The notes: a model not told the origin generated them from the sequence alone. DNA of 64,000 nucleotides from Candidatus Moraniibacteriota bacterium (GCA_046116545.1 CP175956.1:257734-321733), one strand, 5' to 3'. Positions 1 through 57,888 are shown, counted from the first letter of the stretch. Numbers and translations are program-made.

Positions 1-135
1 AACATTTCTTACAACAACCATTATAATAGACGCTAATACACCAATAATTGCTATCACAATTAGAAGTTCTATTAAAGTAAAGCCTTTTTTCTCACCTCTA
101 TTTTTATTTGTTTTATTATTTCTTTTACAAAACAT
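1..135 (-). CDS. type IV pilin/pseudopilin, N-terminal fragment (gene continues past window start)
   Basis: Minus-strand ATG is the reverse complement of 133-135. Translation: MFCKRNNKTNKNRGEKKG|[27 protein letters not shown]... This shows a class-III prepilin signal (G^FTLIEL, Glu at +5) and a hydrophobic helix. No stop occurs before position 1. It is absent from the ORF track because it is truncated. Confidence 0.6.
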   Translation of the reverse strand, partial: MFCKRNNKTNKNRGEKKGFTLIELLIVIAIIGVLASIIMVVVRNV

Positions 136-197
136 TTTTTAAAAAAATAAATTAGTAAAAATTATTCTTTTCTATTTACTTTGATAATAACATGAAA

Positions 198-1130: not shown

Positions 1131-1135
1131 ACTTT

Positions 1136-3447: not shown

Positions 3448-3495
3448 ATTAAAATTGTACCATATGCCAATGCATACGCAATGTAAATAATATAT

Positions 3496-4518: not shown

Positions 4519-4527
4519 CCTTCTTTT

Positions 4528-5685: not shown

Positions 5686-5693
5686 AGATTCTT

Positions 5694-6605
5694 CTATTTC
5701 ATTCTATTCATTAATACAACAAGTTCATCATGTCGTCTTTTAATAGAACTAAGTATTAACCCTGCTATAAAACTGATAAAACTTGCTAAAATCAAAAATC
5801 CTGATACAACTAGTGATGGAATATGTGATACAATGCCTGTTTCAAAATACCCCTCTAAACTATACCATCCTAGGACAAAACTTAATGATGATAAAATAAA
5901 TGCTAATATTAAAAAGAAATGTAATGGCTTATAATCTCTAAATAGTGACAATACTGTATATAACACTATTGTTCCATCTTTTACTGTATTTAATTTTGAA
6001 TCACTTCCATCAGACCTTGGTACAAGTGAGATTGGAATTTCTCTCACTATACAACCTCTTTCTATAGCTTGAATCATTATTTCAGGTTCAATTCCAAATC
6101 CACCCGCAAGAATTGCTGTTGACTGCACGAAATCCTTATTCATTGCCCTGAGACCTGATTCCATATCTCTAAATTTTGTAGCAAAACAAATATTAAGTGA
6201 CATCGTAAGAAATTTATTTCCCCACCAATGACTATTACTAAATGCTTTTGTATTATCAATATGTATTCTATCTCCGACTACCATATCAGCCATTCCTTCT
6301 AGTATTGGTTTTATGATCTTATGTGTATCATTTACATTATACGTATCATCACCGTCAATAAGTACTAAAATATCTCCATCAAACTCATTAAAGATTTTCT
6401 GTACAGCAAAGCCCTTTCCCTGTTTTTTTTCAAAGAATACTTCTGCGCCAGCCTTTTTTGCAATCTCTCGAGTTTTGTCAGAAGAATTATTATCAACAAC
6501 AATTATATGAGAATCTGGTAATTCCCTTTGAAAATCTCTTATAACTTTTTCAATTGTTTTTTCCTCATTATAACAAGGTATTCCTATAACTATTTTTTCA
6601 CTCAT
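5694..6605 (-). CDS. polyprenyl-phosphate sugar synthase (GtrB/DPM1-like GT2 with C-terminal TM anchors)
   Basis: 303 aa. Motifs IGIPCYNEE..VVDNNSSDKT..DGDD form a GT2 catalytic domain. Two C-terminal hydrophobic helices follow, as in GtrB/dolichol-phosphate mannose synthases. Confidence 0.75.
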   Translation of the reverse strand: MSEKIVIGIPCYNEEKTIEKVIRDFQRELPDSHIIVVDNNSSDKTREIAKKAGAEVFFEKKQGKGFAVQKIFNEFDGDILVLIDGDDTYNVNDTHKIIKPILEGMADMVVGDRIHIDNTKAFSNSHWWGNKFLTMSLNICFATKFRDMESGLRAMNKDFVQSTAILAGGFGIEPEIMIQAIERGCIVREIPISLVPRSDGSDSKLNTVKDGTIVLYTVLSLFRDYKPLHFFLILAFILSSLSFVLGWYSLEGYFETGIVSHIPSLVVSGFLILASFISFIAGLILSSIKRRHDELVVLMNRMK

Positions 6606-6609
6606 ATTT

Positions 6610-9012: not shown

Positions 9013-9047
9013 AAAAAAAGACAAGTTTCTATACTTGTCTTTTTTTA
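9013..9047 (-). terminator. rho-independent terminator (bidirectional hairpin) after pilC
   Basis: Sequence aaaaaaaGACAAGTttctatACTTGTCttttttt is a perfect 7-bp stem flanked by A- and T-runs. Confidence 0.6.
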
Positions 9048-9067
9048 TTAATTTATATATTTTATAT

Positions 9068-10276
9068 CTATAATTGTCCTGCTATATTGTATATTGGTAA
9101 TAATACAGAAAATACTAATACACCAACACCTAGACCAAGGAATACTATCAATATTGGTTCTATTATTGATGATAAATTCCTTGTTATTTGATCAACTTCT
9201 GCATTATAAAACCTAGCTATATCAGTTAAGATATCACTCAACCTACCTGTTTCTTCTCCAATTTTTATCATACTTGAAACCATTGGCGGAAACTCTTCAT
9301 GTTTAAAAAATTCTGTATTTATATCCCCTCCCATCTTAACGTCTTGAGCTGCTTTTAATATTATATTTTTATACACTATATTATCTACAACATCTGCAAC
9401 CACTATAAGAGCTCTTACAATAGGAATTCCTCCTTGTAATAACACTGATAGATTCTCTGTAAATCTAGTTATGTATACGTACCTAAACAACTGTCCAACT
9501 ACTGGTAATTTCAATTTAACCTTATCCCATTCTTTACTACCATCTTCACTTTTAATATAATAGATAATTCCTGCAATAACACCAAAAACTACAAGTAATA
9601 TTGCCCACCAATACACCTGCATAAAATCTCCAATTTTTATCATTACACCAGTATACCAAGGTATCTCTACATCCAAATCTCTAATTACTCCAGTTAATTT
9701 TGGCAAAATCCAAGTCATTGTAAGAAATCCTATTACACCAGCAACACTAATAACAAATGCTGGATACATTAATGCTCCCTGGATCTTATTTTTCAATTGA
9801 TAATTCTGTTCAGCACTTTCTGCAACGAAATCAATTGCTCCTTGCAAATTACCCGAAACTTCACCAGCACGTATCATACTTATTGCCAATGTTGTAAATA
9901 TTTTTTCGTGTTTTCCAAAAGCTTCTGAAACTGACATACCATCTTCAACATCATTTGCCACTTCTGCAATCACAAGCTTTAATTGTGCATTTTCTGTCTG
10001 ATCATGAATCGTTCTTAGAGATGGTGCTATTGGAATTTTTGCACCAACCAACGTTGAAAACTCTCTGTAAAATAACAGGAGATCTTTATTATTTACAGAT
10101 GAGGTTAATCTTTCTATCATACCTGCAGCTGATTCACTTTGCTTTATTTCCTTTATCTGTAATGGTATTAAATCATTCTTTTGCAATAATTGATTTGCCA
10201 TCTCTTGATCAACAGCATCAATATTACCTCGCTTAATCTTACCTTCTCTAGTTTTAGCTTTGAATTTAAATTGCAT
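9068..10276 (-). CDS. pilC: type IV pilus assembly platform protein PilC (GspF family)
   Basis: 402 aa with two GspF-like repeats and three TM segments. It sits in the pil operon. Confidence 0.85.
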   Translation of the reverse strand: MQFKFKAKTREGKIKRGNIDAVDQEMANQLLQKNDLIPLQIKEIKQSESAAGMIERLTSSVNNKDLLLFYREFSTLVGAKIPIAPSLRTIHDQTENAQLKLVIAEVANDVEDGMSVSEAFGKHEKIFTTLAISMIRAGEVSGNLQGAIDFVAESAEQNYQLKNKIQGALMYPAFVISVAGVIGFLTMTWILPKLTGVIRDLDVEIPWYTGVMIKIGDFMQVYWWAILLVVFGVIAGIIYYIKSEDGSKEWDKVKLKLPVVGQLFRYVYITRFTENLSVLLQGGIPIVRALIVVADVVDNIVYKNIILKAAQDVKMGGDINTEFFKHEEFPPMVSSMIKIGEETGRLSDILTDIARFYNAEVDQITRNLSSIIEPILIVFLGLGVGVLVFSVLLPIYNIAGQL

Positions 10277-30926: not shown

Positions 30927-31295
30927 TTATTGTCTAATTCTATGCGGAACTTGCTTTTCCCTTTCGTGACGTACATCAGGTTTATAAAGTTTTGTTTCAT
31001 ATGTACAATTTTGTCCACATACTTGATCTACTGCCTTCTTGATTTGCTCATCGCCTTTGTTATCTCTCAATTTTCGCAATGGACCAGCATTATCAACATA
31101 AATTACTACATGATCATTCTTGTGATTAATTTCCTTCACATGTTCACTTATCAAATCACGTGTGTGTCCATGCGTAATAGCAAGTGCAAATACCTTAATA
31201 TCGTGTTTCATAAGCATAAAACTAATAATTATACATAATAACCTCTCATTATATAATACACATTTCATGGACTTTTTATTTCGGTTATATCCCAT
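30927..31295 (-). CDS. hypothetical protein (start uncertain)
   Basis: 122 aa with no recognisable motifs. It is preceded on the minus strand by repeat module A. Confidence 0.3.
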   Translation of the reverse strand: MGYNRNKKSMKCVLYNERLLCIIISFMLMKHDIKVFALAITHGHTRDLISEHVKEINHKNDHVVIYVDNAGPLRKLRDNKGDEQIKKAVDQVCGQNCTYETKLYKPDVRHEREKQVPHRIRQ

Positions 31296-31340: not shown

Positions 31341-31410
31341 AAAAAGTTCTTGAAAAAGAGCTTTTTTATGTGTGCATGGAGCATGGAATGCTGTTGGAAC
31401 TTTTTTGATG
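31341..31410 (-). repeat. repeat module A: degenerate copy of tRNA-Ser(GCU) 3' end plus downstream terminator
   Basis: Minus-strand sequence is AAAAAAGTTCCAACAGCATTCCATGCTCCATGCACACATAAAAAAGCTCTTTTTCAAGAACTTTTTTT. The sequence after tRNA-Ser at 35213-35260 is ..CTCTCCGCACACATAAAAAGCTCTTGTTCAAGAGCTTTTT. Confidence 0.6.
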
Positions 31411-31556
31411 AATATAGATTTGCTCTAATTTATTTATGAAAGAATTTATACAATATTCTAAATTTAACTAGTTTCTTTTAATAAATATGTTAAAATTAGA
31501 TTATTAAGTAAAAGCTGAACAGTATCACAAAACAATAATAAGGAGGTACAGCTAAA

Positions 31557-31757
31557 ATGAAAACGACTACAGAAAATCCTGATATGATTAAAAAAGTTCT
31601 ACGACAAGAAGATGCTCATCCTGACGCAAGTGATTTTATCCAAAATCATCCCGATGCAAGAGGATTCGCTCCAGGTAAACAATCAACAGAACCAAATGGA
31701 TTGTGGCATTCCCATCATGCAGATGCACACGGATGGTGCCACTCAAGTACAAAATAA
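31557..31757 (+). CDS. small His-rich protein (66 aa), unknown function
   Basis: A strong ribosome-binding site AAGGAGGT lies 8 nt upstream. It has repeated HPDA motifs and a C-terminal WHSHHADAHGWCHSS. A 12-bp perfect terminator hairpin follows immediately. Confidence 0.55.
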   Translation: MKTTTENPDMIKKVLRQEDAHPDASDFIQNHPDARGFAPGKQSTEPNGLWHSHHADAHGWCHSSTK

Positions 31758-31777
31758 TTTTGTACTCAATTTACTCA

Positions 31778-31816
31778 CTAGCTTCATGCTTTTAGCATGA
31801 AGCTAGTTCTTTTTTG
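31778..31816 (+). terminator. strong rho-independent terminator
   Basis: Sequence CTAGCTTCATGCttttaGCATGAAGCTAG is a 12-bp perfect stem followed by TTCTTTTTT. Confidence 0.8.
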
Positions 31817-31848
31817 ATATCAAATTAACAATGCGTTATTTAACGCCG

Positions 31849-32322
31849 TTATACTATTTCTATTTCATCAATCACTTTGCCATAAAAATCTTGACGTTTA
31901 CCGCTCTGATCATTTACACCAAGACTAAGATAAAAACCTTCCTCAGAATCATAATCCCAAAATGTTTCACTCTCGCCTTCTTTAAAAATCTCTTCGCCAC
32001 TTGTGTGTTCTGCAACTGCATGTGCCTCAAAAAGAAATGTGAAATCCTTATCATCATATGTTACATCTTCTGGAAATGGTTGTGCTATATCACAATTAAC
32101 CTCACGAACCAATACAAAAGAATTATCCTCCGCATCATCCGCCAAAACATATCCATCAGACAAAAAGCATTTAATATAAAAACTCTTATCATCCAAACGG
32201 AACATTACAATTTCCAATACATCAAGCTCCTTATCATCTACAATAATTATCGTCCCAACTTTAACTTTACGTCGAAATTCTTGTACTTTCATAATTAATA
32301 TTATTACTATTTCTCTTATCAT
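31849..32322 (-). CDS. hypothetical acidic protein
   Basis: 157 aa. The likely start is the internal MKVQEF. There are no recognisable motifs. Confidence 0.4.
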   Translation of the reverse strand: MIREIVIILIMKVQEFRRKVKVGTIIIVDDKELDVLEIVMFRLDDKSFYIKCFLSDGYVLADDAEDNSFVLVREVNCDIAQPFPEDVTYDDKDFTFLFEAHAVAEHTSGEEIFKEGESETFWDYDSEEGFYLSLGVNDQSGKRQDFYGKVIDEIEIV

Positions 32323-32390
32323 CTTACCCTTATTCTTTAATTTTCACCAATCAAGTCATTCATAATCAAAATAAAGAGTACTGAATTAGA

Positions 32391-32466
32391 AATAAAAAAT
32401 CACATATCTGATCTGTGTAATTTTTATATATGGGGAGCATGGGATGATATTAGAACTTTTTTGATA
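32391..32466 (-). repeat. repeat module B (tRNA-3'-end-like repeat + hairpin)
   Basis: Minus strand: AAAAAAGTTCTAATATCATCCCATGCTCCCCATA followed by a hairpin and T-run. Confidence 0.5.
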
Positions 32467-32537
32467 AATTCACATTAAGTTTTTAGTATTTTTTCAACCT
32501 ACTATGCTAAAATAAGAGTGTAATAAAATAATAAATA

Positions 32538-32963
32538 ATGTTTATGAATGAAAAACTTACACAACGCGCTTTTTTTTCAAAAGGCATTGGAGGATTGATT
32601 GGAGTACTTACCTTGATATTTTTACCCTACATGTGGCCAGATGTAACTATGCATATGCGTATTGGTATATTGGTAGGGTTTGCACTTCTAGGTGGAACAA
32701 TTGCTGTTGCTGGTATTTTTACTCAAATTCCAGTATTTAATATCAGATTTACTGCTGCTATACGTGGCGCAATGATTGGTGGATCATTCGCACTTGCTTT
32801 TATACTAATCTCTTTTGATTCATTGGTTACATATATGCAAACTGCAACCATATTCGCAGGTTTATCTCCATATTGGATAATTATAGATGGACTAATTATT
32901 GGCGCACTACTTGATATTATTGCTACAAAAAAAGTAGGCGAAGGAAAGGAATTGTGTCAATAA
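32538..32963 (+). CDS. small membrane protein (4 TM), unknown
   Basis: 141 aa, strongly hydrophobic and Gly/Ala-rich in its helices. Confidence 0.45.
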   Translation: MFMNEKLTQRAFFSKGIGGLIGVLTLIFLPYMWPDVTMHMRIGILVGFALLGGTIAVAGIFTQIPVFNIRFTAAIRGAMIGGSFALAFILISFDSLVTYMQTATIFAGLSPYWIIIDGLIIGALLDIIATKKVGEGKELCQ

Positions 32964-32990
32964 ACATTTCCTATCAAAATAATGTAATTT

Positions 32991-33066
32991 TAAAAAACAC
33001 ATAACTATCCAGTTGTGTGTTTTTTGTTTGCGGGGAGGATGAGACGATATTGAAACTTTTTTGATG
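32991..33066 (-). repeat. repeat module C
   Basis: Minus strand: AAAAAAGTTTCAATATCGTCTCATCCTCCCCGCA followed by hairpin ACACATAACTatccAGTTGTGTGT and T-run. Confidence 0.5.
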
Positions 33067-33079
33067 GAAAATACGATTA

Positions 33080-34360
33080 TTAACTACTACTAATATTAAT
33101 TTTTTCTATTTCATCAATCAAAACTCTAGATTGTTCCAAAAATGCATTTTGTATATCAACAAAATCTTCACTGCTCAATCCCTTTAAAAAATCGCTCATC
33201 CTCTGTTCTTCATTAAATATTTCTCTTTTTTCATACACTCCACTTATTTTCATCTTTTTATTTAACACACTTTTCAAAAAATCAATAGAATAACCATATG
33301 ATTCTTTAAATCCATTTGCAGAAAGAATCATCAATACACAAACCTCTGGTTCAGTATTCATGCTTACAGCATCGGAAAGAAATTCGTAAACATCCTCAGA
33401 ATTTTTAATCTGATAATCTGAGGTGCCACTATCAACTGCTTGCCAATCATGCTTTATTAAGGGTGAAAAATGATATACAAAATTTAATACCTTATGTGCT
33501 AATTCATTACTTTCTGTATGCTTTATAAAATTTTCCTTAGACAATTCTTCCAAAAAAGGATACTTTTCCTTGGCTATTGAAGCTTCGCTTTCGAAATATC
33601 TATCATGCTCATTCATATTAATCATGATTTGCCCATGCGTAGTTACTCCAAATATAATATTTTCTTTATCCCTTCTATCATAATCAACATAAAATAAATT
33701 TGTTTTTTTCCCAGAAACTTGCGGAAAAACTTTGGTTATTCCTTCATATTGTTCTAATAAAATTTCTTGATTAGAACCTTTGATAAAAAGATCTTCATCA
33801 TTAACTTGATTATATATATTAAAAAAATAACCATTATTAGCAAAGTGCACTAACAACTCTGACATTGCCTGATCAACTTCAATACGCGAAAAATTTTTCC
33901 TATTTATTGCTTGTTGCAGGTTAGCAAATCCTGCATATGTTGTTTCATCAACTAAATTTTTATTCTCTATAAGTAAGTCTAGAATATATCTAAAATTATT
34001 GGAAAAAGACTGCATTTTATTATCACCATCAGTCATCTGAGGTATTTGGTCTTTTGTTGAACCTACCAGTTTCACAACAAATTGATCAATTTTTTCTTTA
34101 TCAGATAATTGTTCATTATTATTAGCAAGAGCTTCAGCCATTCCTACAACTGGTTCACTAGCAACTACAAGTGCTGCTCCGACAGCACTCTTTATAAAAG
34201 ATCTTCTAGTCATGTTTCTTTTTTGAGAAAACTCTTGAGAAACCTGTTTTTCCTCAATTGATTTTTTAAAATGTTTCTCCATATTATATAGTTCAAAAAT
34301 AAATACCTCTAGAAATTTTTTCTTATATTCCAGCCCAAGAAAAAAATACTTTACAAGCAC
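33080..34360 (-). CDS. hypothetical protein with twin-arginine (Tat) signal peptide
   Basis: 426 aa in the track. The internal Met gives MTRRSFIKSAVGAALVVASEPVVGMAEA, which is a Tat motif S/T-RRxFxK followed by a hydrophobic region. The true start is probably this Met. The mature domain has no recognised motifs. Confidence 0.45.
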   Translation of the reverse strand: MLVKYFFLGLEYKKKFLEVFIFELYNMEKHFKKSIEEKQVSQEFSQKRNMTRRSFIKSAVGAALVVASEPVVGMAEALANNNEQLSDKEKIDQFVVKLVGSTKDQIPQMTDGDNKMQSFSNNFRYILDLLIENKNLVDETTYAGFANLQQAINRKNFSRIEVDQAMSELLVHFANNGYFFNIYNQVNDEDLFIKGSNQEILLEQYEGITKVFPQVSGKKTNLFYVDYDRRDKENIIFGVTTHGQIMINMNEHDRYFESEASIAKEKYPFLEELSKENFIKHTESNELAHKVLNFVYHFSPLIKHDWQAVDSGTSDYQIKNSEDVYEFLSDAVSMNTEPEVCVLMILSANGFKESYGYSIDFLKSVLNKKMKISGVYEKREIFNEEQRMSDFLKGLSSEDFVDIQNAFLEQSRVLIDEIEKINISSS

Positions 34361-34430
34361 TCTTTTAAAAGCTATTCAAATAATATCATAAAATATATCC
34401 ATTTGGAACTTTTAGAGTTTTATAATAAAA

Positions 34431-34504
34431 ACAAAAAATACACATCTAAGATATGTGAATTGTAAACGCGGGGAGTCTGGAACGATGTTGGAACTTTTTT
34501 AACA
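34431..34504 (-). repeat. repeat module D
   Basis: Minus strand: AAAAAAGTTCCAACATCGTTCCAGACTCCCCGCG followed by a hairpin and T-run. Confidence 0.5.
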
Positions 34505-34527
34505 ATAGTTAATACATAAATTATTTG

Positions 34528-35145
34528 TTACTCACTTTTTAAAATCCCAATATACACTTTAATTTTTTCATCTCCTGATACAGCATACGCTAATGACCTC
34601 ATACAACCGTCATCCAAAAACCATGAGATTGTTTTAATTCCTCCATTATGCTTTTTATATGTTCCATTTGGCACAACTATTGGTAATAAATATTTTTCCT
34701 TCTGCAATATTCTTTTTATTGGAATTATTTGAGGAACTACTTGAAACGCTCGTCTTTTTTGAATTTTCGACTTATCTTTTTTAAGTTCGACTCTTAACTT
34801 TTGTGCAGTTTGACTTAAAGAAACTCTTTGTGTCCATGACTCATATAACCCGCCTGTCCTATTCCACACTTTAACTTCAGATACATTTACTTCACCCAAA
34901 TACCAATCCAATGTTTCATATGCTTTTAATCTTTTTTTATATTCATCTCCTATAATTTTATCAAGTGACTTTTCTCTTAGTTTTAAAACCTTCTTTTTAG
35001 TCTTTGATAAGTTTTGTATAAGTGTATCCTTATCTGGATTATACTCTTTAATTCCTTTTTTGCGCATTTTTTTTGATGTAAAGCGTTGTGATAATACAAA
35101 ACATCTTTTTGTCTCAATAACTGAAACTTTTTTAAATAATTTCAT
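34528..35145 (-). CDS. basic hypothetical protein adjacent to tRNA-Ser
   Basis: 205 aa, K/R-rich. No recombinase catalytic motifs were recognised. Confidence 0.4.
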   Translation of the reverse strand: MKLFKKVSVIETKRCFVLSQRFTSKKMRKKGIKEYNPDKDTLIQNLSKTKKKVLKLREKSLDKIIGDEYKKRLKAYETLDWYLGEVNVSEVKVWNRTGGLYESWTQRVSLSQTAQKLRVELKKDKSKIQKRRAFQVVPQIIPIKRILQKEKYLLPIVVPNGTYKKHNGGIKTISWFLDDGCMRSLAYAVSGDEKIKVYIGILKSE

Positions 35146-35212
35146 AAATTTTATTTTACTTTTTATATATCAAGTATATCACTGATAGTTCCAAAGTGAT
35201 AAACTCCTTATA

Positions 35213-35241
35213 ATAAAAAGCTCTTGAACAAGAGCTTTTTA
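35213..35241 (-). terminator. rho-independent terminator after tRNA-Ser(GCU)
   Basis: Sequence AAAAAGCTCTTGaacaAGAGCTTTTT. Confidence 0.6.
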
Positions 35242-35247
35242 TGTGTG

Positions 35248-35334
35248 CGGAGAGGGAGGGATTCGAACCCTCGAGGCCCGTAAAGACCTAACACCTTAGC
35301 AGGGTGCCCTATTCGACCGCTCTAGCACCTCTCC
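35248..35334 (-). tRNA. tRNA-Ser (anticodon GCU)
   Basis: Reverse complement: GGAGAGGTGCTAGAGCGGTCGAATAGGGCACCCTGCTAAGGTGT..GGTTCGAATCCCTCCCTCTCCG. The acceptor 7 bp and anticodon loop CTGCTAA are present. A long variable arm is typical of class II tRNAs. The discriminator is G. CCA is not encoded. Confidence 0.85.
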
Positions 35335-48325: not shown

Positions 48326-49498
48326 TCAATAATCATCAAAACGACCATACGGTGTTTCTAAAATTATTTTATTTTGACCTTTTATTCCCTTCTCACATAC
48401 ACCTAGGTCATACAGGGTAATATGTGTTTGCTCACTGATGATTTGCATCACTTCTGCAAATTCTTCATTATCCTCACCAACAACATCAATACCAACACCA
48501 CAATTAAATGACTCAAACATATTACGCCACGTTTCTCCAGAGTCATTTTGAATTCTCTGAAAAAGAGGTGCCGCTTCTGGCATTGTCTTGTGATATACAA
48601 TGCCCTCACCAACATGTGCAATCTTGGTTGCTCCTCCACCAGTGTTCATGCTAATACCATGCAACATGTGGAAGATATTTCTTTCCTTCAAAGCTTCAAT
48701 GATCATTTTAATAACTACTGACCAATGTCTTGTCGGAGAAATAAGTTGCTGTGCTACACCGCTATCTGCACTTTTATCCCCTTCAAAAGAAGCTCCATCT
48801 TTAATGAGAAATGGATATTTCTCACCATATTTTGGATGCATTTCCTTGTAGCGAGCCATAGTTGAACCATTGGACATAAGTCCACTGTTTTCTTCCGTCT
48901 CCCATTCTGCTCGCCCATCAGATGCAAAACCATAAATTTTGTCACCAACCTGAACATTACCCGAAATGATATTTTCTTCGGCTGTCTCTGAATATACTGC
49001 AACATCGAATACAATACTCTTTACCTGATCAGGCAAATCTGCAGTCTCACCACCCAGAAAATGAACGTCCATGCCAAAATATTTATATAGCTCTAGCGCA
49101 TCTTCAAATCCGCCTGCCAACTGTTCCAGAATAACTTTTTTAGGAACATTTATGCCATTAATATTAACAGTATCTGCAACAATCGCCATATCAACAAAGC
49201 CACTTGCAGCAATATCTCCGAGATTCATTTCCATCGCATCAATAACAGCGCCCCAGAATACTTGTGGATCTGATAATTCAAGATACATAAGCATTCGCTG
49301 TAAGAATTTACTTCCATCCCCATCCAGATGTAATGTACACACAACACCCTTTTGTGTTGGATGATCGATGATGTTTACAAAAGCATTTGGATATTTATTT
49401 TCCACAATTGGACCAAATGTTTTACGAACAACTCCCTTTTGTGCATCAACGCCAAGTTTTGAATATTGACTTTCTTGTTTCATGTCTATCTTCTCCAT
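48326..49498 (-). CDS. PurM-family protein (AIR synthase-like; phosphoribosylformylglycinamidine cyclo-ligase candidate)
   Basis: 390 aa. The N-terminal Y-x3-GVD motif (YSKLGVDAQKG) and HLDGDGSKF (cf. PurM GTDGVGTK) are present. It is adjacent to purL/purN. Confidence 0.5.
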   Translation of the reverse strand: MEKIDMKQESQYSKLGVDAQKGVVRKTFGPIVENKYPNAFVNIIDHPTQKGVVCTLHLDGDGSKFLQRMLMYLELSDPQVFWGAVIDAMEMNLGDIAASGFVDMAIVADTVNINGINVPKKVILEQLAGGFEDALELYKYFGMDVHFLGGETADLPDQVKSIVFDVAVYSETAEENIISGNVQVGDKIYGFASDGRAEWETEENSGLMSNGSTMARYKEMHPKYGEKYPFLIKDGASFEGDKSADSGVAQQLISPTRHWSVVIKMIIEALKERNIFHMLHGISMNTGGGATKIAHVGEGIVYHKTMPEAAPLFQRIQNDSGETWRNMFESFNCGVGIDVVGEDNEEFAEVMQIISEQTHITLYDLGVCEKGIKGQNKIILETPYGRFDDY

Positions 49499-49552
49499 TG
49501 AAAATAAAATGTAGTCCTTGGTGGAATTATTTCCACCAAGGACTGAGTTAAA

Positions 49553-52500
49553 CTACTTGTTGTGCATACACCATTCGTATGCATTTTGAAACATCTTCAG
49601 CCATGGTGCTACGTGACCATTTGCGTGAAGTTCACGTTTCATATCTTCTGGCAGATAATGACACTCCCATGACAGAAACGTTCGTTCAGGATGTGGCATC
49701 ATCGCGAGATGACGACCGTCTTCTGAACACATGCCCGCCAGACCTTCTGGAGAGCCGTTTGGATTAAACGGATAGTCTTCTGTTGCCCAACCAGCATCGT
49801 CAACATAGACAATCGGCAAAAGCTTTTTCACTTTCAAATCATCAATCATATCATGATTTGGAAAATGTAATTTACCCTCACCATGAGCAACATTGATTCC
49901 AAAAGTCAATCCTTCCATACCCTTGAACATAATTGACTGACTCTTCTCAATTGTTACAGTTGACCACCTTGACTCAAATTTCTGCGAATCATTGTGAATA
50001 AACCGTGGCTGATCCTCCGGTGCAATCCCACGCCATGGAACCCAACCAAGGAGTCCAAACAATTGACAACCATTACATATACCCAATGAGAAAGTATCTG
50101 TACGATTATAAAATTCTTTAAAAATCGCACTAACTTTTTTATTGAACTTGATTGTCGCTGCCCAACCCTTGGCTGACTCTGGTACATCTGCATAAGAAAA
50201 TCCACCTACAGCAGCAAGACCTACAAACTGATTTAAATCTTTTACCTTACCAGTAAGTAAATCAGTCATTGTAATATCCCACGGTTCAAATCCCGCAGCA
50301 TAAAACGCCGATGTCATTTCACGATCAGAGTTACTTCCCTCTTCACGCAAAATTGCCACCTTTGGTTTATCGGTTGCATCCAAAACTTCCTGCGAAGTAA
50401 CTTGAGGCGTAAAAGGCACAATATACTTTGGACCAGATCGATCAAAAATATTTTCCTTTTCTGCATCAGCACACGCTGGATTTTTCTGAATACGTTCCAG
50501 TTGATACGAAGTCTCTTCCCATTCTTGGCGAAGAATTTTCATATCTTCAGACAGAACTGTGGCACAGTCATACTTAATTTGAATTAACTGTTTCTTAGTT
50601 GTTTCTCCGATTACATACACACCTCCATGATGAGCGCCATGAGCACAGATAGTAGTAAAAACTTCATTAACATTACTATTCTCACACTCAATCACAATAC
50701 CTAACTCCTCCGCAAACAATCGCGGAATTAACATCCTAAATGGTGCATGACATTTTGCAAGATCAATATTTATCCCACAATTACCAGAAAACGCCATCTC
50801 AAGCAATGTTGCAATCAAGCCACCATCACTCACGTCATGTCCAGCAAGAATTAAACCTTTACTAATCAATTCTTGAATAGCTAGAAATGCATTAGCTACT
50901 AATCCCGGATCATCCATATCTGGTGATTCATCACCAATTTGACCCCGAGTCTGAGCTAGTGCAGTTCCACCAAGACGCATTTTACCATCGGAAAGATCAA
51001 TAAAAATAAGTTTGCTCTCACCTGGCTTCTTAATGTCTGGTGTCACAACTTTTGTGATGTCATCCATCGCACCATAAAGAGAAATAACAAGCTCACGTGG
51101 TGATTTCACTGTTTCATCACCCACAATTGTCGCCATTGACATACTATCTTTTCCGCCGTCAACTGCGATACCAATTTTTTCCATTGATCCACACATTGCC
51201 CTAGTGGCATCATTGAGAGCAGCTCCTTCACCCGGAAGCTTTGGCGCCCACATCCAGTTTGCACTGCATTTAATCTGCTCTAGATCCAATCCACCAGCCC
51301 ACATCAGGTTTGTCAGTGCTTCACCGACAGCCATACGTGCTCCAGCAGCGGGATTCACCATCATCTTAATCGCTTGCTCACCAATTGCTGTCGCTCCACC
51401 TGTAAGTCCAAAATGACTCTGCGCAACCACTGCAACATCTGCAAGTGGTAGTTGCAACGGTCCAACACATTGTTGTTGTGCTATAAGTCCCGTTACAGAC
51501 CGATCAACTTTATTCGTGAGAAACCGTTTTGAACCAACAGACACAAGTCGTAAAACATCATGCAATGCACTCCTAACGGTCACACCATCAGGAAGTACAA
51601 ATGGTTCAAGTTTCATCGGAACATGGTTGTCCTCAAAAGTTTTCTGTGGCATGCCACCGAGTACCTTTGAAAGATCGAGATTAACTGGTGTCGTATTGTC
51701 ATTACTATCTCGTACAACAAATTGCATATCACCAGTTACTTCACCAAGTACTTCACAACCAACTTTTTCACGATCGCAAATTGCTTGAAAATGTTTAATA
51801 TTTTCTGGACTAATGAGAAATCCATTTCGTTCCTGAAATTCAGCAACATAGATTTCCAATACAGACATCGTCGGGTCACCAACATTAATATTACGAATGT
51901 TAATAACACCACCCGATTTTTCAACAAGTTCTTTAAGAACATTTGCTGGACCACCAGCACCTTGATCATGAATAACATCAATGAGAGTTTTATATCCCAT
52001 TTCATTACAAGCTCGGATAACACGATTCATCTTTTGTTCCATTTCCGCGTCACCACGTTGCACTGCATTAAAATCAAGTTCAGCAGCCTGTTCACCTTGA
52101 AGCATACTCGAAGCAGCTCCACCACCAAATCCAACACGATAAGCAGGACCACCCACCTGTACAATACGCATTCCTTTCTTTTGCGTATCTTTCTCAGTAT
52201 GTCGTGCATCAATTTGACCTATGCCACCAGTAAACATAATAGGCTTTAGAAAGCCCCAACGCTCACCACCAGGTAACCGCATATCAAATGATCGCGTAAA
52301 ACCTTGAATCATTGGCTCACCAAACTTATTTCCATAGTCTGACGCGCCATCACTTGCCTCGATCTCAATCTGTCGAGCTCTAGCCAAGTTATCTGGATAT
52401 TCAAACCCAGCAGTTTCCCATGGTAATTCGTAACCATCAATATGCAAATTTGCTACACAATACCCTGATGTACCAGCTACCACAAATCCGCCCTTTCCTG

Positions 52501-53413
52501 TTCCCTGAATATCGCGAATACGACCTCCAGCTCCAGTCTCTGCTCCAGGAAATGGAGCAACGCCAGTCGGAAAATTATGTGTCTCTGCAGTAAGCATCAA
52601 ATGATACGTTGTAGTCTGCATAGAAAAAGTTGATACTTCGCCAGGATTATTTGGGATAAGCGTATCAATCGTAGATCCCTCAATTACACTTGAATTATCT
52701 TTGAACGATACAACACTGCCTTTGGGATGCTTTTTGAGAGTTTCTTTTACAAGATCAAACAAAGTGTCTTCTTGTAAATATCCATCAATTTTCAACCTCC
52801 CACCAAAATATCCATGACGAGAATGTTCCGAATTTGCATTATTGAGATCCATAATCTCAACAATTGTTGGATTACGATTATGTTCTCCAACAAAATAATT
52901 ATAATAGAAATTACGATCATGTTCATCCATAGAAATGCCTGGAATATTCGTTAATGCACCTGGACCACCACGTTTCATGTTAACATCATACACTTTTTCA
53001 GGCTTAATGCCTGTATCAAATGTAGTTAATATTTTTTCATAGACCATTTCTGTCATACGATCATAATGATCCGCAACAAAACTAGGTCTATTAGCATCTT
53101 CACCTAGCACATATCGCCTTGATCTCTCAATGCGTGTGACCATAGTCAGGCCAACAGTATGACAAATTGATACCATATTAGAAGACCATGCTGTAGTACG
53201 ATTGAGAGTTGTTCCAATCTCAACAATACGATCACACTCATTTAACTGTGAAACAGCTGTGATGGATTTATAATCAAATCCATCTGCAAGTACGCCTATC
53301 AATATTTGCACTTGAGAATCACTTAGAGCACCCTCAAGCTCAATATTAAAACAATATTCATCACAACCAACAACGCCTTTTTTCCTGTACATTTGAATCA
53401 CATTTCTCTTCAT
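49553..53413 (-). CDS. purL: phosphoribosylformylglycinamidine synthase, large single-chain form
   Basis: 1286 aa. It has an N-terminal domain, the FGAM synthetase (PurM-like) domains, and a C-terminal class-I glutamine amidotransferase with catalytic Cys in GICNGCQ and His in the HGEG motif. Confidence 0.9.
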   Translation of the reverse strand: MKRNVIQMYRKKGVVGCDEYCFNIELEGALSDSQVQILIGVLADGFDYKSITAVSQLNECDRIVEIGTTLNRTTAWSSNMVSICHTVGLTMVTRIERSRRYVLGEDANRPSFVADHYDRMTEMVYEKILTTFDTGIKPEKVYDVNMKRGGPGALTNIPGISMDEHDRNFYYNYFVGEHNRNPTIVEIMDLNNANSEHSRHGYFGGRLKIDGYLQEDTLFDLVKETLKKHPKGSVVSFKDNSSVIEGSTIDTLIPNNPGEVSTFSMQTTTYHLMLTAETHNFPTGVAPFPGAETGAGGRIRDIQGTGKGGFVVAGTSGYCVANLHIDGYELPWETAGFEYPDNLARARQIEIEASDGASDYGNKFGEPMIQGFTRSFDMRLPGGERWGFLKPIMFTGGIGQIDARHTEKDTQKKGMRIVQVGGPAYRVGFGGGAASSMLQGEQAAELDFNAVQRGDAEMEQKMNRVIRACNEMGYKTLIDVIHDQGAGGPANVLKELVEKSGGVINIRNINVGDPTMSVLEIYVAEFQERNGFLISPENIKHFQAICDREKVGCEVLGEVTGDMQFVVRDSNDNTTPVNLDLSKVLGGMPQKTFEDNHVPMKLEPFVLPDGVTVRSALHDVLRLVSVGSKRFLTNKVDRSVTGLIAQQQCVGPLQLPLADVAVVAQSHFGLTGGATAIGEQAIKMMVNPAAGARMAVGEALTNLMWAGGLDLEQIKCSANWMWAPKLPGEGAALNDATRAMCGSMEKIGIAVDGGKDSMSMATIVGDETVKSPRELVISLYGAMDDITKVVTPDIKKPGESKLIFIDLSDGKMRLGGTALAQTRGQIGDESPDMDDPGLVANAFLAIQELISKGLILAGHDVSDGGLIATLLEMAFSGNCGINIDLAKCHAPFRMLIPRLFAEELGIVIECENSNVNEVFTTICAHGAHHGGVYVIGETTKKQLIQIKYDCATVLSEDMKILRQEWEETSYQLERIQKNPACADAEKENIFDRSGPKYIVPFTPQVTSQEVLDATDKPKVAILREEGSNSDREMTSAFYAAGFEPWDITMTDLLTGKVKDLNQFVGLAAVGGFSYADVPESAKGWAATIKFNKKVSAIFKEFYNRTDTFSLGICNGCQLFGLLGWVPWRGIAPEDQPRFIHNDSQKFESRWSTVTIEKSQSIMFKGMEGLTFGINVAHGEGKLHFPNHDMIDDLKVKKLLPIVYVDDAGWATEDYPFNPNGSPEGLAGMCSEDGRHLAMMPHPERTFLSWECHYLPEDMKRELHANGHVAPWLKMFQNAYEWCMHNK

Positions 53414-56936: not shown

Positions 56937-57380
56937 ATGTCAACCTTAGCAGTAAACAAAAAAGCAAAATTTGATTATGAATTCATAGAAAAGTATGAGG
57001 CTGGTTTAGTGTTGTTTGGTCATGAAGTTAAATCTATCAAAACTGGACATATTTCTTTGAAAGGTTCTTTTGTAACAATACATAATAATGAGATGTATCT
57101 AACAAATGCACTTGTACCGTTATATCAACATGCTGGAAATATCAAAGATTACGATCCTAATCGTTCTAGAAAGTTACTTGTCAAGAAAAGTGAAATTCGT
57201 TCTCTTATCGGAAAAAAGGCTCAAGCTGGATTGACAATGGTGCCAATTCGTGTTTATACTAAGAGAAACCTTCTGAAATTAGAATTTGCTCTCGCAAAGG
57301 GGAAAACAAAACATGACAAGAGAAATGTAATGAAAAAGCGAGATACTGATAGAAATATCGCTAGAGCGCTCAGGAGATAA
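56937..57380 (+). CDS. smpB: SsrA-binding protein SmpB
   Basis: 147 aa. N-terminal KFDYEFIEKYEAGLVLFGHEVKS, the GxEVKS-like region and a basic C-terminal tail match SmpB. Confidence 0.9.
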   Translation: MSTLAVNKKAKFDYEFIEKYEAGLVLFGHEVKSIKTGHISLKGSFVTIHNNEMYLTNALVPLYQHAGNIKDYDPNRSRKLLVKKSEIRSLIGKKAQAGLTMVPIRVYTKRNLLKLEFALAKGKTKHDKRNVMKKRDTDRNIARALRR

Positions 57381-57414
57381 GTGAATTGTAACTTAAAAAT
57401 TGAAAATTAATCAT

Positions 57415-57842
57415 GGGGATGACTAGCTTTCGACAGTTTGTCATCTGCTGATATGCACGTCGAGCATGTATGTTTATTCTCGTAAAACTAATATACATTT
57501 TGATTTAAGTGCAAACTTTATCAATAAGGCAAAAGTAGCATTTGCTAACGCATTTGCACCATCTTTTGCACCGTCTCTCGCGTAATAAACGCTTGAGCCA
57601 TCACACGAGCTGAGCGTCTCATAAGTTCATTGTGGTGTCATATTTTTGAGGCTCGCTCTTTATTGGTATCTTTGACGATTTAGAGTTAAACTTCAAAGAT
57701 AGATTAATAGATCTTTTGACTGTTTTGCTACTATTAATTGAACCTGTCTTTTTGCAAAGACTTGCAAAACATGTCCAAGCGTGTGAAGAGTATTATCAGA
57801 TTTACAAATTTGGACGTGGGTGCAATTCCCACCATCTCCACA
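57415..57842 (+). ncRNA. ssrA: tmRNA (SsrA)
   Basis: The 5' GGGGATG pairs with 3' CATCTCC-A-CA (tRNA-like acceptor). The T-arm is GGACGTGGGTGCAATTCCCAC. An internal tag reading frame ends ..GCA CCG TCT CTC GCG TAA TAA (57571-57588), giving a candidate tag ..ANAFAPSFAPSLA. It lies directly downstream of smpB. Confidence 0.75.
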
Positions 57843-57888
57843 TAGTTTAATTTTCAATTTTCAATTTATAATTTAAAACCTTTTACTT

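Follow-up and report, generated by a model that had tools for sequence, protein, structure and literature searches.

Candidate attR-type junctions of small integrative elements downstream of tRNA-Ser(GCU) in a Candidatus Moraniibacteriota genome

The 64-kb window analysed here, a stretch of 64,000 nucleotides from a Candidatus Moraniibacteriota genome, contains a cassette-like array downstream of tRNA-Ser(GCU), in which small genes alternate with four repeat modules (A to D). These modules are probably the attR-type junctions left by small integrative elements of one family, which insert by means of a large serine recombinase (LSR) at the 3' ends of tRNA-Ser and tRNA-Gln genes in Patescibacteria. 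The window array itself has no recombinase gene and forms a composite island of four small units, each 0.6 to 1.4 kb long with one or two genes; the cargo at the hotspot behind tRNA-Ser differs from one related genome to the next. An earlier note on this DNA had proposed repeated site-specific insertion at the tRNA 3' end, leaving attR-like scars, and this reading is supported by the corresponding loci of relatives, by the co-occurring LSR genes and by the positions of the core that the modules share.

Repeat modules and cargo genes in the window

The earlier note described four modules with a common 34-nt minus-strand core, each followed by a hairpin and a T-run, and this description is borne out by pattern and profile searches, shuffling and folding. 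Allowing up to three mismatches, the degenerate 34-nt core pattern matches the 64-kb window exactly four times, always on the minus strand, and none of 100 dinucleotide shuffles of the window contains a match. A profile built from ~38 distinct copies of the core recovers cores A to D and nothing else credible in the window (Table 1), and these copies are confined to 3.2 kb downstream of tRNA-Ser(GCU). The core sequence itself is unpaired upon folding, and the hairpins of the modules were missed by a simple terminator scanner because they contain too few G-C pairs. No Rfam family is matched by the modules. Core D is almost identical, including a variable GA dinucleotide, to the terminal core of the LSR element in the relative L039.

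Table 1. Features of the array and its target tRNA, in window coordinates
Feature	Position	Strand	Remarks
122-aa ORF distal to array	30927..31295	-	ORF list
hA, hairpin + T-run	31341..31372	-	fold -7.0 kcal/mol; homologous to h0
Core A, P-type half-site	31373-31406	-	30 bits; most decayed, most distal copy
Unit 4 cargo, 66-aa His-rich protein	31557..31757	+	own strong terminator 31777-31807
Unit 4 cargo, 157-aa acidic protein	31849..32322	-	borderline DUF4178, 24.8 bits vs cut-off 25
hB, weak hairpin + T-run	32391..32428	-	fold -4.8 kcal/mol, z -1.05
Core B, P-type half-site	32429-32462	-	31 bits; 3' end decayed to CCATA
Unit 3 cargo, 141-aa membrane protein	32538..32963	+	strand opposite to array
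hC, bidirectional hairpin terminator	32991..33028	-	fold -11.4 kcal/mol, z -3.5
Core C, P-type half-site	33029-33062	-	36 bits; start 17 nt past stop codon of 426-aa gene
Unit 2 cargo, 426-aa protein, twin-arginine-like signal	33080..34360	-	400 aa if ATG at 34282
hD, hairpin + T-run right of junction	34431..34466	-	fold -5.7 kcal/mol, z -2.2
Core D, P-type half-site	34467-34500	-	40 bits; best preserved
Unit 1 cargo, 205-aa basic protein	34528..35145	-	ORF list; only sub-threshold Pfam hit
Second conserved stem-loop within h0 (GGAGTTTATCAC-TTTGGAACTATCA-GTGATA)	35177..35207	-	
h0, tRNA terminator (GCACACAT + A-run + hairpin + T-run)	35208..35246	-	fold -13.8 kcal/mol, z -6.3
tRNA-Ser(GCU)	35247..35334	-	ARAGORN; Rfam 53.5 bits

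The sequence h0, to the right of the junction after the tRNA, is the terminator of the tRNA and the right-hand partner of the site. Module A had been noted to reproduce the tRNA-downstream sequence together with this terminator, which holds, with a single 1-nt indel, for ~32 of 34 positions in the alignment, and the homology extends to ~60 nt. A copied tRNA terminator is found in module A only, since the hairpins of modules B, C and D have other sequences. hA is taken to be the earlier tRNA-downstream sequence of the locus; in L043, L024 and L007 the sequence after the tRNA likewise resembles that after the last core. Sequence ~80% identical to h0 follows a core in L020. The second stem-loop motif occurs after cores in L020, L001, L005 and L032, and shows a compensatory change from ATCAC/GTGAT to ATTAC/GTAAT.

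The gene order given earlier agrees with the ORF list. The 205-aa protein yields no significant family and no PADLOC or PHROGs hit, and the 426-aa protein belongs to no known family in Pfam, PADLOC or PHROGs. A gene 83% identical to the 205-aa gene at the nucleotide level is present in L003, where it lies downstream of a core and not of a tRNA. The 122-aa ORF is either host flank or a fifth unit with a lost core; the profile search finds no further core below position 31373.

Core family and serine recombinases in related loci

The core consensus consists of AAAGTTCCAACATCGTCCCAnnCTCC and ~5 nt matching the target tRNA, and it is near-invariant in 4 genome-assembly loci and 34 metagenome loci (~40 loci of other Patescibacteria); viral contigs gave no core hits. 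In the profile search, cores form same-strand arrays of 3 to 8 copies, in which neighbouring cores are 427 to 3410 bp apart (median 950 bp). Their position and orientation are strict: wherever a locus includes a target tRNA together with cores, this tRNA, either tRNA-Ser (GCU, GGA, UGA, CGA) or tRNA-Gln, precedes the cores on their own strand (the window, L002, L006, L007, L010, L016, L017, L021, L024, L040, L043, L055 and L057). A dispersed terminator family, which the earlier note had named as a refuting outcome, is therefore not what is seen, as all four window cores lie in the array and the cores of every locus that also has a target tRNA lie downstream of it on the same strand. AT-rich, -10-like sequences are present upstream of many core copies.

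Recombination breakpoints fall at the 3' end of the core. Identity between L002/L031 and L005 is 100% up to and across the core, and directly after it the sequences are unrelated; the KilA-N and RhuM/Fic units are found again between cores whose neighbourhoods differ. One and the same downstream sequence can follow either a tRNA or a core; such interchangeable partners connect h0 of the window with L020 and with hA, and L021 with L039, and they also occur within L043, L024 and L007. Core scores in the window drop away from the tRNA (40, 36, 31 and 30 bits), and the same tendency is found when arrays are pooled (Spearman -0.40, p = 0.008), being noisy in several arrays.

A convergent LSR gene abuts the tRNA in 12 related loci; 9 of the 12 carry a rolling-circle Rep gene beside it, and 8 contain a core at the far end of the element (L002, L006, L010, L017, L039, L040, L055 and L057). 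The LSR ORF encodes 490-540 aa with Resolvase, Recombinase and Zn_ribbon_recom domains; it is convergent with the tRNA, which it overlaps. A Rep gene of the REP_ORF2-G2P family comes next, and the opposite end of the element, 4.5 to 11 kb away, carries the core. Among PDB structures the LSR matches the SPbeta integrase, and its identity to known integrases is at most 29%. These eight loci provide a recombinase co-occurring with the core, for which the earlier note had suggested a search. A tyrosine integrase, considered there as a possible enzyme class, is very unlikely to be the enzyme: the integrase position of the relatives is held by a serine integrase, and no tyrosine recombinase was detected either in the window or at the related loci that were inspected.

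Elements with LSR and Rep genes also occupy the same locus in relatives of the window. LSR elements are present at the orthologous tRNA-Ser(GCU) in L039, L040, L042, L046 and L057, and the LSR gene abuts this tRNA in the last four; L044 is empty, L043 holds one unit, and L039, L040 and L057 contain extra units in addition to their LSR elements. Homology of the window to L039, L040 and L043 stops at the tRNA 3' end. This agrees with what had been predicted for such a comparison, in that synteny ends exactly there and the content differs in every relative. In the 64-kb window, tblastn detects no LSR or Rep gene or remnant, and no recombinase domain is found in the array ORFs or in 29 other ORFs scanned between 21.2 and 64 kb. 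The enzyme of the array can therefore be deduced only from the relatives, whose sequences point to the LSR as the enzyme probably acting on the core.

Attachment-site geometry and proposed mechanism

The 3' part of the core had been described as mirroring the acceptor strand of tRNA-Ser (CTCCCCGCA and CTCTCCGCA). This similarity is real and has a counterpart at tRNA-Gln loci, where the core end ...CTCCGAGC(C) matches the tRNA end ...CCCCGAGC(C); from one target tRNA to another, the final ~5 nt of the core change accordingly. Rather than a degenerate tRNA copy, as the note had assumed, the core is a conserved, element-borne P-type half-site, of which only the last 5 to 9 nt match the tRNA. Its attB-type counterpart, the left half-site (B), is formed by the last ~22 nt of tRNA-Ser(GCU), from the T-loop to the acceptor 3' strand (~35247-35272). 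Alignment of cores with their own target tRNAs is best with a 5-nt gap in 6 of 6 pairs (a 4-nt gap is tied in two), and with the 5-nt gap all pairs are best placed 16 nt from the 3' end. Out of 2000 shuffles, no more than 8 perform as well, and MAFFT yields the same 5-nt gap. In serine integrase sites, the distance from the crossover to the zinc-ribbon-domain motif is 5 bp greater for attP than for attB (PMC3783163), a geometry that the core-tRNA offset matches.

In reconstructed attP sites, the LSR ORF reads in frame through the antisense core in 7 of the 8 elements attempted, with L010 giving no in-frame junction, and ends in a conserved ...W(D/N)DVGTF(L/F) tail; L032 contains an actual core|P' junction. 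Read antisense, the core encodes the C-terminus of the LSR in the excised form, and part of its conservation may come from coding this tail rather than from DNA recognition. A positional comparison reveals no inverted symmetry between the core and the sequences right of the junction. The recombination of canonical serine integrases is restricted to the pair attP and attB (PMC3783163). From such enzymes, serial insertion beside an existing attL is unexpected; it needs either a right arm that mimics attB or relaxed directionality.

According to the proposed mechanism, each module would be composed of a 26-nt element-borne arm (the P half-site, AAAGTTCCAACATCGTCCCAnnCTCC), the last few nucleotides common to the target tRNA (CCGCA for tRNA-Ser) and the pre-insertion tRNA-downstream sequence, which would be the terminator hairpin. 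The crossover is predicted ~3 to 4 nt before the tRNA 3' end, its exact position being an estimate. Each insertion would rebuild the tRNA, supply a new terminator and push older junctions outward, and the array would therefore be ordered from the youngest junction (D) to the oldest (A). At present, the modules would serve mainly as terminators and insulators, and they could still act as substrates should an LSR element enter the cell. The small units were probably mobilised in trans, in the past or present, rather than left behind by deletions. Against this scenario, most of them contain no LSR or Rep trace, and circular forms were not seen.

Alternative explanations and known systems

Alternatively, the small units may never have moved alone, each being a full-length LSR and Rep element after deletion of its recombinase and replication genes, and the array would therefore be purely a graveyard. 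Such losses would fit the strong genome streamlining in Patescibacteria, the decay of core quality with distance from the tRNA, the near-identity of core D to the core ending the LSR element of L039, and the arrangement in L032, where LSR-type P' sequence comes after a core and no more than 69 aa of the LSR C-terminus are left. This explanation is possible but doubtful, because L032 is the only small unit, those of the window included, in which an LSR or Rep remnant is detectable. Unit starts are clean, with a terminator directly after the previous core, and the same unit turns up between cores in more than one neighbourhood, its boundaries lying at the core. At their start, several units have an A-run and hairpin resembling the P' arm of LSR elements, suggesting that both ends were kept, as in non-autonomous derivatives. 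Units might also be shuffled without a dedicated enzyme, by ordinary homologous recombination across the core and the terminators that resemble each other, for instance following DNA uptake. With lengths of 34 to 140 nt and identities of 80 to 100%, cores and part of the downstream modules suffice for RecA-type exchange, and the identity of the sequences after the tRNA and after the last core in L024 and L043 recalls a Campbell-type single crossover. Yet breakpoints lie at the core 3' end and not anywhere within the shared sequence, the 34-nt core is close to the minimum length for efficient exchange, and a site-specific step is required for cores to have first arrived behind different tRNAs whose 3' nucleotides they match, which renders this route improbable.

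It is very unlikely that the modules are multicopy small-RNA genes (C-rich, with an anti-Shine-Dalgarno CUCCCC seed and terminator) or a conserved 3'-UTR/terminator family with no role in recombination. Such genes would be suited by a C-rich 34-mer without structure, a hairpin behind it that resembles an intrinsic terminator, and the -10-like sequences. However, the copies match no Rfam family, are strictly tied in position and orientation to target tRNAs and LSR elements, and decay with distance from the tRNA; their 3' nucleotides co-vary with the target, identity between loci breaks exactly at the core end, and their antisense is LSR coding sequence in the reconstructed attP. A classical tRNA-targeting island of a tyrosine integrase, with displaced tRNA 3'-end copies as repeats, would typically show the location and tandem structure observed (PMC7192596), but is extremely unlikely given the absence of a tyrosine integrase, the LSRs in the integrase position of relatives, and a core-tRNA identity of only 5 to 9 nt with a conserved 5-nt insertion and a non-tRNA arm. 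Integron arrays are similar in outline only, with single-gene units that each end in a recombination site and stack at one insertion point, the newest nearest. The integron-like alternative of the earlier note is valid on this level of analogy and fails for a true integron, there being no IntI and no attC-type fold. Although mostly co-oriented single genes, a repeat after each and the best preservation nearest the insertion point would accord with a classical integron or CALIN in which IntI, a tyrosine recombinase, acts on modules as attC sites, this reading has next to no probability. The enzyme that co-occurs is a serine recombinase, the conserved core remains unpaired and lacks a complementary R''/L''-L'/R' partner, and arrays begin at a tRNA rather than at attI/intI. 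Opposite to attC sites, the modules keep their sequence and not their structure from lineage to lineage, and the array is not a member of the integron family.

With LSR-mediated insertion as the preferred reading, the array most closely resembles the SCC/psiSCC composite islands and the tandem islands at tRNA genes. In SCC arrays, recombinase-less units are thought to depend on recombinases from other elements (PMC12648241). As in SCC/SCCmec, including ccr-less psiSCC, large serine recombinases insert at the 3' end of one conserved gene, tandem elements are separated by repeated attachment-site copies, and recombinase-less units occur within the same arrays. Unlike SCC, which targets rlmH, the Patescibacteria elements use tRNA genes (several isoacceptors), carry a single LSR with attP inside its own 3' end and a linked rolling-circle Rep gene, consist of far smaller units (median ~1 kb, often one gene), and are known here from sequence alone. 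Prochlorococcus tycheposons are reportedly integrative elements in tandem at tRNA genes. Insertion into tRNA/tmRNA genes restores the tRNA and leaves a far-end repeat, leading to tandem arrays with variable cargo (PMC7192596). The hotspot at a tRNA 3' end is thus shared with Islander/TIGER-type islands and tycheposons, but these use tyrosine integrases, and their repeat is a true displaced tRNA copy instead of an element-borne arm with a 5-nt offset.

In the filamentous phiRSM phages of Ralstonia, a serine recombinase integrates a rolling-circle element into the 3' end of tRNA-Ser via a 13-bp attP and catalyses both integration and excision (PMC4471427). This combination of enzyme class, replication mode and target recalls the Patescibacteria loci, but the phiRSM enzyme is of the small resolvase/invertase type without recombinase and zinc-ribbon domains, PMC4471427 describes no cassette arrays for phiRSM, and the Patescibacteria-element proteins scanned include no recognisable phage structural genes. 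The LSR shares its domain architecture with phage serine integrases (A118/LI, Bxb1, phiC31, SPbeta), in whose sites the outer motif of the attP-type arm is likewise shifted 5 bp outward from the crossover relative to that of the attB-type arm (PMC3783163). In contrast to these systems, the right half-sites lack evident symmetry, attP lies inside the integrase ORF, and the tandem arrays imply behaviour beyond the strict attP x attB rule.

The core array behind tRNA-Ser(GCU)

A degenerate 34-nt pattern of the core, the minus-strand repeat carried by the four intergenic modules A to D, matched the window at exactly four places when up to three mismatches were allowed, all on the minus strand, and dinucleotide-preserving shuffles of the window gave no matches. 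The four-copy repeat described in an earlier note is thereby confirmed, and the gene order given there agrees with the order of the window ORFs. The units, meaning the gene or genes between consecutive cores, are four in number and 0.6 to 1.4 kb in size, and the base composition of the array is that of its surroundings. Proteins of the four units have no significant match in Pfam, PADLOC or PHROGs, in keeping with the description of the cargo as lacking known function.

Coordinates of the four cores and their target tRNA gene in the window
Feature	Position	Strand	Basis
core A	31373-31406	minus	degenerate 34-nt pattern match
core B	32429-32462	minus	degenerate 34-nt pattern match
core C	33029-33062	minus	degenerate 34-nt pattern match
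core D	34467-34500	minus	degenerate 34-nt pattern match
tRNA-Ser(GCU)	35247-35334	minus	

A hairpin and a T-run come after each core. The module hairpins were assessed by folding, as they contain too few G-C pairs for the terminator scanner, and have energies of -11.4 (C), -7.0 (A), -5.7 (D) and -4.8 (B) kcal/mol, while the terminator of tRNA-Ser(GCU) itself reaches -13.8 kcal/mol (z -6.3). The similarity previously seen between the flank of module A and that of the tRNA extends to about 32 of 34 identical aligned positions, and the homology runs on for about 60 nt.

Core scores drop outward from the tRNA in the window (40, 36, 31 and 30 bits), and in ten pooled arrays core score and distance from the tRNA show a rank correlation of -0.40 (p = 0.008), which fits newest-proximal stacking with neutral decay of older junctions. 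Core D is nearly identical, variable dinucleotide included, to the core that terminates a large serine recombinase element in the related locus L039. Because the sequences right of the junction after the tRNA (h0) and after core A (hA) are homologous, the entire 3.9-kb stack may have entered the window genome as a single composite, built stepwise elsewhere, or it may have been assembled in place.

Distribution of the core and geometry of the junction

With one genome per species scanned, the core turned up in two Candidatus Moraniibacteriota assemblies and, at two places, in a low-GC assembly that bears the label Gammaproteobacteria; a metagenome scan added 34 further loci. Both scans used the window-derived pattern, which under-samples divergent cores, and some of the related loci overlap: L031 comprises L001 and L002, L030 and L037 resemble L007, L036 and L038 resemble L033, L014 resembles L017, and L028 resembles L022. 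No match was obtained when viral contigs were scanned for the core. L001 and L002 lie on CAYMGT010000009.1, labelled 'uncultured Gammaproteobacteria', with an LSR family, cores and low G+C as in the Patescibacteria loci; this label may be wrong.

Across loci the consensus AAAGTTCCAACATCGTCCCAnnCTCC is nearly invariant, the window copies being among the more degenerate. The sequence upstream of the core is unrelated from locus to locus, and the sequence downstream usually consists of a differing hairpin and T-run. The core is a conserved element and not a private, decaying tRNA copy: the 'degenerate tRNA copy' of the earlier note is at odds with this near-invariance and with a tRNA identity of only 5 to 9 nt.

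A profile built from the copies revealed same-strand core arrays in many loci, with at least 6 to 8 cores in L005, L023, L028 and L032 and three in L013, L024, L031 and L039. The cores are spaced 427 to 3410 bp apart (median 950 bp), and array ORFs are mostly co-oriented with them, stopping a few tens of nt before a core. Wherever a locus holds both, cores lie downstream of the target tRNA and on the same strand, the targets being tRNA-Ser (anticodons GCU, GGA, UGA and CGA) and tRNA-Gln.

MAFFT aligns the core to the tRNA 3' end only with a 5-nt gap (GTTCCAACATCGTCCC versus GTTCGAA-----TCCC). When six cores were each compared with the tRNA they target, this gap gave the most matches every time, tied by a 4-nt gap in two, and the best placement with it was consistently 16 nt from the 3' end; no more than 8 of 2000 composition-preserving shuffles aligned as well. 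In serine integrases the zinc-ribbon-domain motif of attP half-sites is set 5 bp farther out from the crossover than its attB counterpart (PMC3783163), and the offset between core and tRNA appears to be this same attP versus attB geometry. The terminal ~5 nt of the core vary in step with the target (CCGCA behind tRNA-Ser, GAGC(C) behind tRNA-Gln), an agreement that would provide the shared crossover sequence of partner sites, and core endings GAACA, CAGCC and AGGCC suggest further targets. Because of this co-variation, the crossover is probably located ~3 to 4 nt inside the 3' end of the tRNA. Counted from this point, GTTCCAA would occupy positions ~18-24 of the core and GTTCGAA positions ~13-19 of the tRNA, apparently fitting the published windows of 16-24 and 11-19.

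An imperfect inverted repeat linking the two half-sites of a site was not found. Positional comparison of the core with the sequences right of the junction, both the h sequences of the small units and P', their counterpart in the LSR elements, matched at a near-chance level, and a regex search for an inverted-repeat partner of the core matched in one of 69 downstream regions. The sole feature shared right of the junction is an A-run at about +8 to +14.

Several further motifs occur near the junctions. The last ~21 nt of the tRNA, from T-loop to 3' end, are often repeated in inverted and partly degenerate form farther out than the terminator behind a target tRNA or core (L007 ~1640-1700, L024 ~900-935 and ~5050-5085, L045 ~9620-9640, L057 ~4340-4360, L015 ~290-320, L026 ~3660-3690), sometimes as a very long perfect palindrome with 29-bp arms in L015. 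This copy might be the missing right half-site, though 40 to 95 nt separate it from the junction. In two Moraniibacteriota loci (L003 3180-3255 and L004 900-965, minus strand) a G+C-rich, apparently structured segment of 60-80 nt, without an Rfam match, takes the place of the AT-rich hairpin after the core. The motif GATGAG(A/C)AGTT(T/C)AT..CG.A.GCG.AGCG..GGGTGA recurs in L018 (~60-140), L024 (~4040-4100) and L028 (~6500-6570) between inverted and direct partial tRNA 3' ends, forming a mini-helix-like hairpin that matches no Rfam family. Another motif, (A)GTATCG(A/T)GGCAGACC(C)GAGATCC, stands directly after the junction, behind cores as well as behind tRNA-Ser(GCU) (L039 ~700-760 and ~4600-4655, L011 ~40-100, L041 ~9400-9440). 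An Rfam search of the window and ten related loci assigned no family either to the modules or to other recurring motifs.

Large serine recombinase elements at the same sites

At tRNA-Ser in L002, L006 and L010 and at tRNA-Gln in L017, a convergent ORF of 490-540 aa abuts the tRNA, its 3' end running into the tRNA gene. The Pfam domains of its product (Resolvase, Recombinase and Zn_ribbon_recom) identify a large serine recombinase (LSR). In L002, L006 and L017 the next gene encodes a rolling-circle replication protein (Rep) of the family REP_ORF2-G2P, and the element ends, 4.5 to 11 kb off, in a core, so that tRNA and core form its two boundaries. The LSR has a solved-structure match in SPbeta integrase, and its identity to integrases of known phages and plasmids is at most 29%. 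At least 2748 database entries belong to the family, and the named members among the matches listed are annotated as Patescibacteria.

A search for a recombinase co-occurring with the core, as the earlier note had proposed, thus leads to this LSR, which stands beside the attachment site in related loci, the orthologous tRNA-Ser(GCU) locus included. The window itself has no LSR or Rep gene or fragment detectable by tblastn, apart from trivial tRNA-antisense matches, and no recombinase domain in the array ORFs or in the 29 further ORFs that were scanned from 21.2 to 64 kb, the ORFs of the first 21 kb being screened for LSR and Rep by tblastn only; the absence of a recombinase in or near the array had been correctly noticed before. 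Scanning viral contigs with the LSR profile returned only two contigs of ~5 kb with related LSRs, one of them integrated at tRNA-Gln and both without a core or intact attP. Terminal direct repeats indicating circular forms were present on none of the contigs examined.

Defence cargo carried by the system includes EcoRI and HinfI restriction-modification systems, an AAA_13 ATPase, a diversity-generating-retroelement (DGR)-like reverse transcriptase, RhuM/Fic and an AcrVA2-like protein. The reverse transcriptase carried by the LSR element of L002 (326-2791, minus strand; Pfam RVT_1) has a DGR-like LGNLTSQ...YADD signature, a sub-threshold RT-16 RNA match upstream (39.5 bits against a gathering score of 50) and a 188-aa possible target gene nearby, which points to a putative DGR as mobile cargo.

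The attP of these elements was reconstructed by joining an element's own core to the sequence following the tRNA. Of eight elements treated in this way, seven then have an LSR ORF that runs in frame through the antisense core, and L010 gave no in-frame junction. The resulting LSR tails are conserved (for example VRGEWDDVGTFFR, LRGVWNDVGTFL... and MLGVWDVVGTFL), and the part encoded by the antisense core reads ...W(D/N)DVGTF(L/F) in L002, L006, L017, L039, L040 (9806-9842), L055 and L057. Integrated copies end instead in a tRNA-antisense tail, ...R(D/G)DSNP..., of variable length. L032 contains an actual core-to-P' junction followed by a 69-aa LSR remnant. With attP inside the LSR ORF, integration swaps the C-terminal tail, and for the same reason part of the core conservation may reflect coding constraint. 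The tail swap might affect LSR activity or directionality.

The relatives of the window genome share the tRNA-side synteny of the tRNA-Ser(GCU) locus (DUF389, tRNA-Arg, a ~260-aa protein, tRNA-Ser(UGA), sufCBD and rpoCB), and content on the opposite side differs in all of them. The closest relative, L043, has one 446-aa unit between tRNA and core, and L044 is empty, with BipA after the tRNA, so that the presence/absence variation predicted for this locus is indeed found. An element with LSR, Rep, EcoRI restriction-modification and AAA_13 ATPase genes (7.9 kb) occupies the site in L040, followed by a core and one more unit ending in a partial core. L039 carries a 5.2-kb LSR and Rep element, a core and then two more core-bounded units, and L057 an LSR, Rep and HinfI restriction-modification element with the core 7 kb away. 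In L042 and L046 an LSR C-terminus lies at the contig edge, L045 holds a type I restriction-modification island without cores, and L041 a different LSR with prophage genes. DNA homology of the window with L039, L040 and L043 ends exactly at the tRNA 3' end. In L039 (~9850-9890) the tRNA-Ser(GCU) gene beside the LSR element has an internal deletion that fuses the first ~27 nt directly to CGCA and P' sequence, with loss of the ARAGORN call; the cause is either an artefact of assembly or damage to the target gene.

Breakpoints also fall at the core. L002/L031 and L005, from the same sample, match at 100% identity as far as ...CCCCGCA, a stretch that takes in a reverse-transcriptase gene and the core, and from the next base on they are unrelated. 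Two units, one with KilA-N (L031 and L013; 96% identity) and one with RhuM/Fic (L001, L019 and L025), each recur between cores with differing neighbours, and their homology begins or ends at cores. The window h0 resembles not only hA but also the sequence after the L020 core, the sequence after the tRNA-Ser of L021 recurs after a core in L039, and in L043, L024 and L007 the tRNA and the last core are followed by equal sequences. Since the same right-hand sequence follows either of them, tRNA end and core are interchangeable left partners, an outcome that conservative site-specific recombination at the junction would produce.

Proposed mechanism, rival readings and setting

These observations suggest a model in which the LSR binds the core as a P-type half-site (the element arm) and the tRNA 3' end as a B-type half-site, with strand exchange a few nt before the tRNA end. 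Each insertion would restore the tRNA, supply a new terminator and displace the older junction, and the small units would be non-autonomous elements, moved or stacked by an LSR supplied in trans. The main difficulty of this model is stacking beside an existing attL: because canonical serine integrases recombine only attP with attB (PMC3783163), it would require right arms that mimic attB, or relaxed directionality.

The strongest rival takes the array for a graveyard of deleted full-length LSR elements. The junction and LSR remnant in L032 are what such deletion would leave, but LSR and Rep remnants are generally absent from the units, and the units are reused cleanly. Homologous recombination across cores may contribute to the shuffling; it cannot account for how cores with matching ends first came to lie behind different tRNAs. 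The same co-variation of the core 3' end with the tRNA, together with the positional rules behind tRNAs and the breakpoints at the core, leaves a small-RNA or terminator family unsupported, and the generic terminators away from tRNAs that the earlier note had weighed against its own reading were not seen in the 64 kb of the window, all four copies falling within 3.2 kb behind the tRNA. Within these 64 kb that placement, and in other loci the same-strand arrays, speak against a dispersed REP- or MITE-like repeat.

A true integron, the alternative raised at the outset, is excluded, since an IntI tyrosine recombinase is absent from the scanned ORFs of the window and from the called genes of relatives, the array head has no attI, and an attC fold is lacking, the core being unpaired in the folds of all four modules; the sites are conserved in sequence across lineages rather than in structure. 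A tyrosine-integrase tRNA island is contradicted by the 5 to 9 nt of tRNA identity, by the 5-nt insertion and non-tRNA arm in the repeat and by the LSR in the integrase position. Such Islander-type islands have a displaced exact tRNA 3' copy at the distal end and a tyrosine integrase at the proximal end, neither of which occurs in this system. Other functions considered for the core were also rejected. As a plus-strand short peptide (MLELF-like) it conserves neither frame nor stop codon across copies, the conserved antisense coding being the LSR tail; as an ECF-sigma or sigma-70 promoter it has no conserved -10 behind it, and the promoter scan stayed at background level; as a rolling-circle origin it is unstructured and lies at the element end opposite rep.

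A bolder and rather doubtful proposal is that Patescibacteria possess a serine-integrase equivalent of the integron. The 3' end of tRNA-Ser or tRNA-Gln would be the fixed insertion point and the 34-nt core the cassette site, and one- or two-gene cassettes would be captured, stacked, excised and exchanged in trans by an LSR that arrives on a small rolling-circle element. Integration rewrites the last ~12 to 40 LSR residues from ...WDDVGTFL to ...RDSNP..., attP being within the LSR gene, and this rewriting could act as a directionality switch. If true, the tail switch would explain both the escape from the strict attP x attB rule and the building of arrays.

Tyrosine integrases are well known to give tandem arrays of integrative elements at tRNA genes (PMC7192596). 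Serine recombinases build tandem composite islands, recombinase-less members included, in the SCC elements at rlmH (PMC12648241), and in phiRSM phages a serine recombinase inserts a rolling-circle replicon into the 3' end of tRNA-Ser (PMC4471427). The Ccr-type LSRs of SCC target the 3' end of rlmH (orfX), whereas the system seen here targets a tRNA gene, so that the likeness is one of function and not of membership. Full-text literature searches found no description of the LSR/core system of Patescibacteria. Judged from sequence comparison, known ingredients appear in a new combination: an LSR with a tRNA target, an attP inside the integrase ORF, and tiny stacked units tagged by a conserved 34-nt arm.

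The setting is a lineage with poorly charted mobile elements. In Patescibacteria (CPR), whose genomes are tiny, few routes of gene exchange are recognised; the system is widespread among them and apparently undescribed, and the very small gene units that it leaves are stacked at a single hotspot. The conserved 34-nt core can serve as a simple tag by which metagenomes are screened for hotspots of this kind. The system also supplies a set of natural serine integrases for which genome sequences directly reveal both attP and attB, the latter being a tRNA gene, and enzymes of this kind are the raw material of genome-engineering tools. Mobility of the units in trans, or control of directionality by the tail swap, would extend the known behaviour of serine integrases.

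Some minor features of the window were noted in addition. A 12-nt partial copy of the core start (AAAAGTTCCAAATGG, 34399-34415, minus strand) lies ~50 nt downstream of module D and could be a remnant or chance; the similar motif GTTCCAAAGT occurs after the L039 core and also inside LSR genes, where it encodes conserved LWNA residues. The window contains smpB and a full-length tmRNA gene (114.5 bits) at 56937-57843, directly followed by infC and rplT, and this tmRNA gene, another classical integration hotspot, has no island. G+C is 26-29% in the first 8 kb (1-8000) and rises to 40-42% at 49000-53000, around a 1286-aa ORF (49553-53413). Downstream of the tRNA terminator (35177-35207, minus strand) there is a conserved stem-loop, TATCAC-TTTGGAAC...-GTGATA, with no Rfam match, which is also present in L020, L001 (~6150-6190), L005 (~6860-6900) and L032 (~9020-9060) and shows a compensatory change from ATCAC/GTGAT to ATTAC/GTAAT between lineages.
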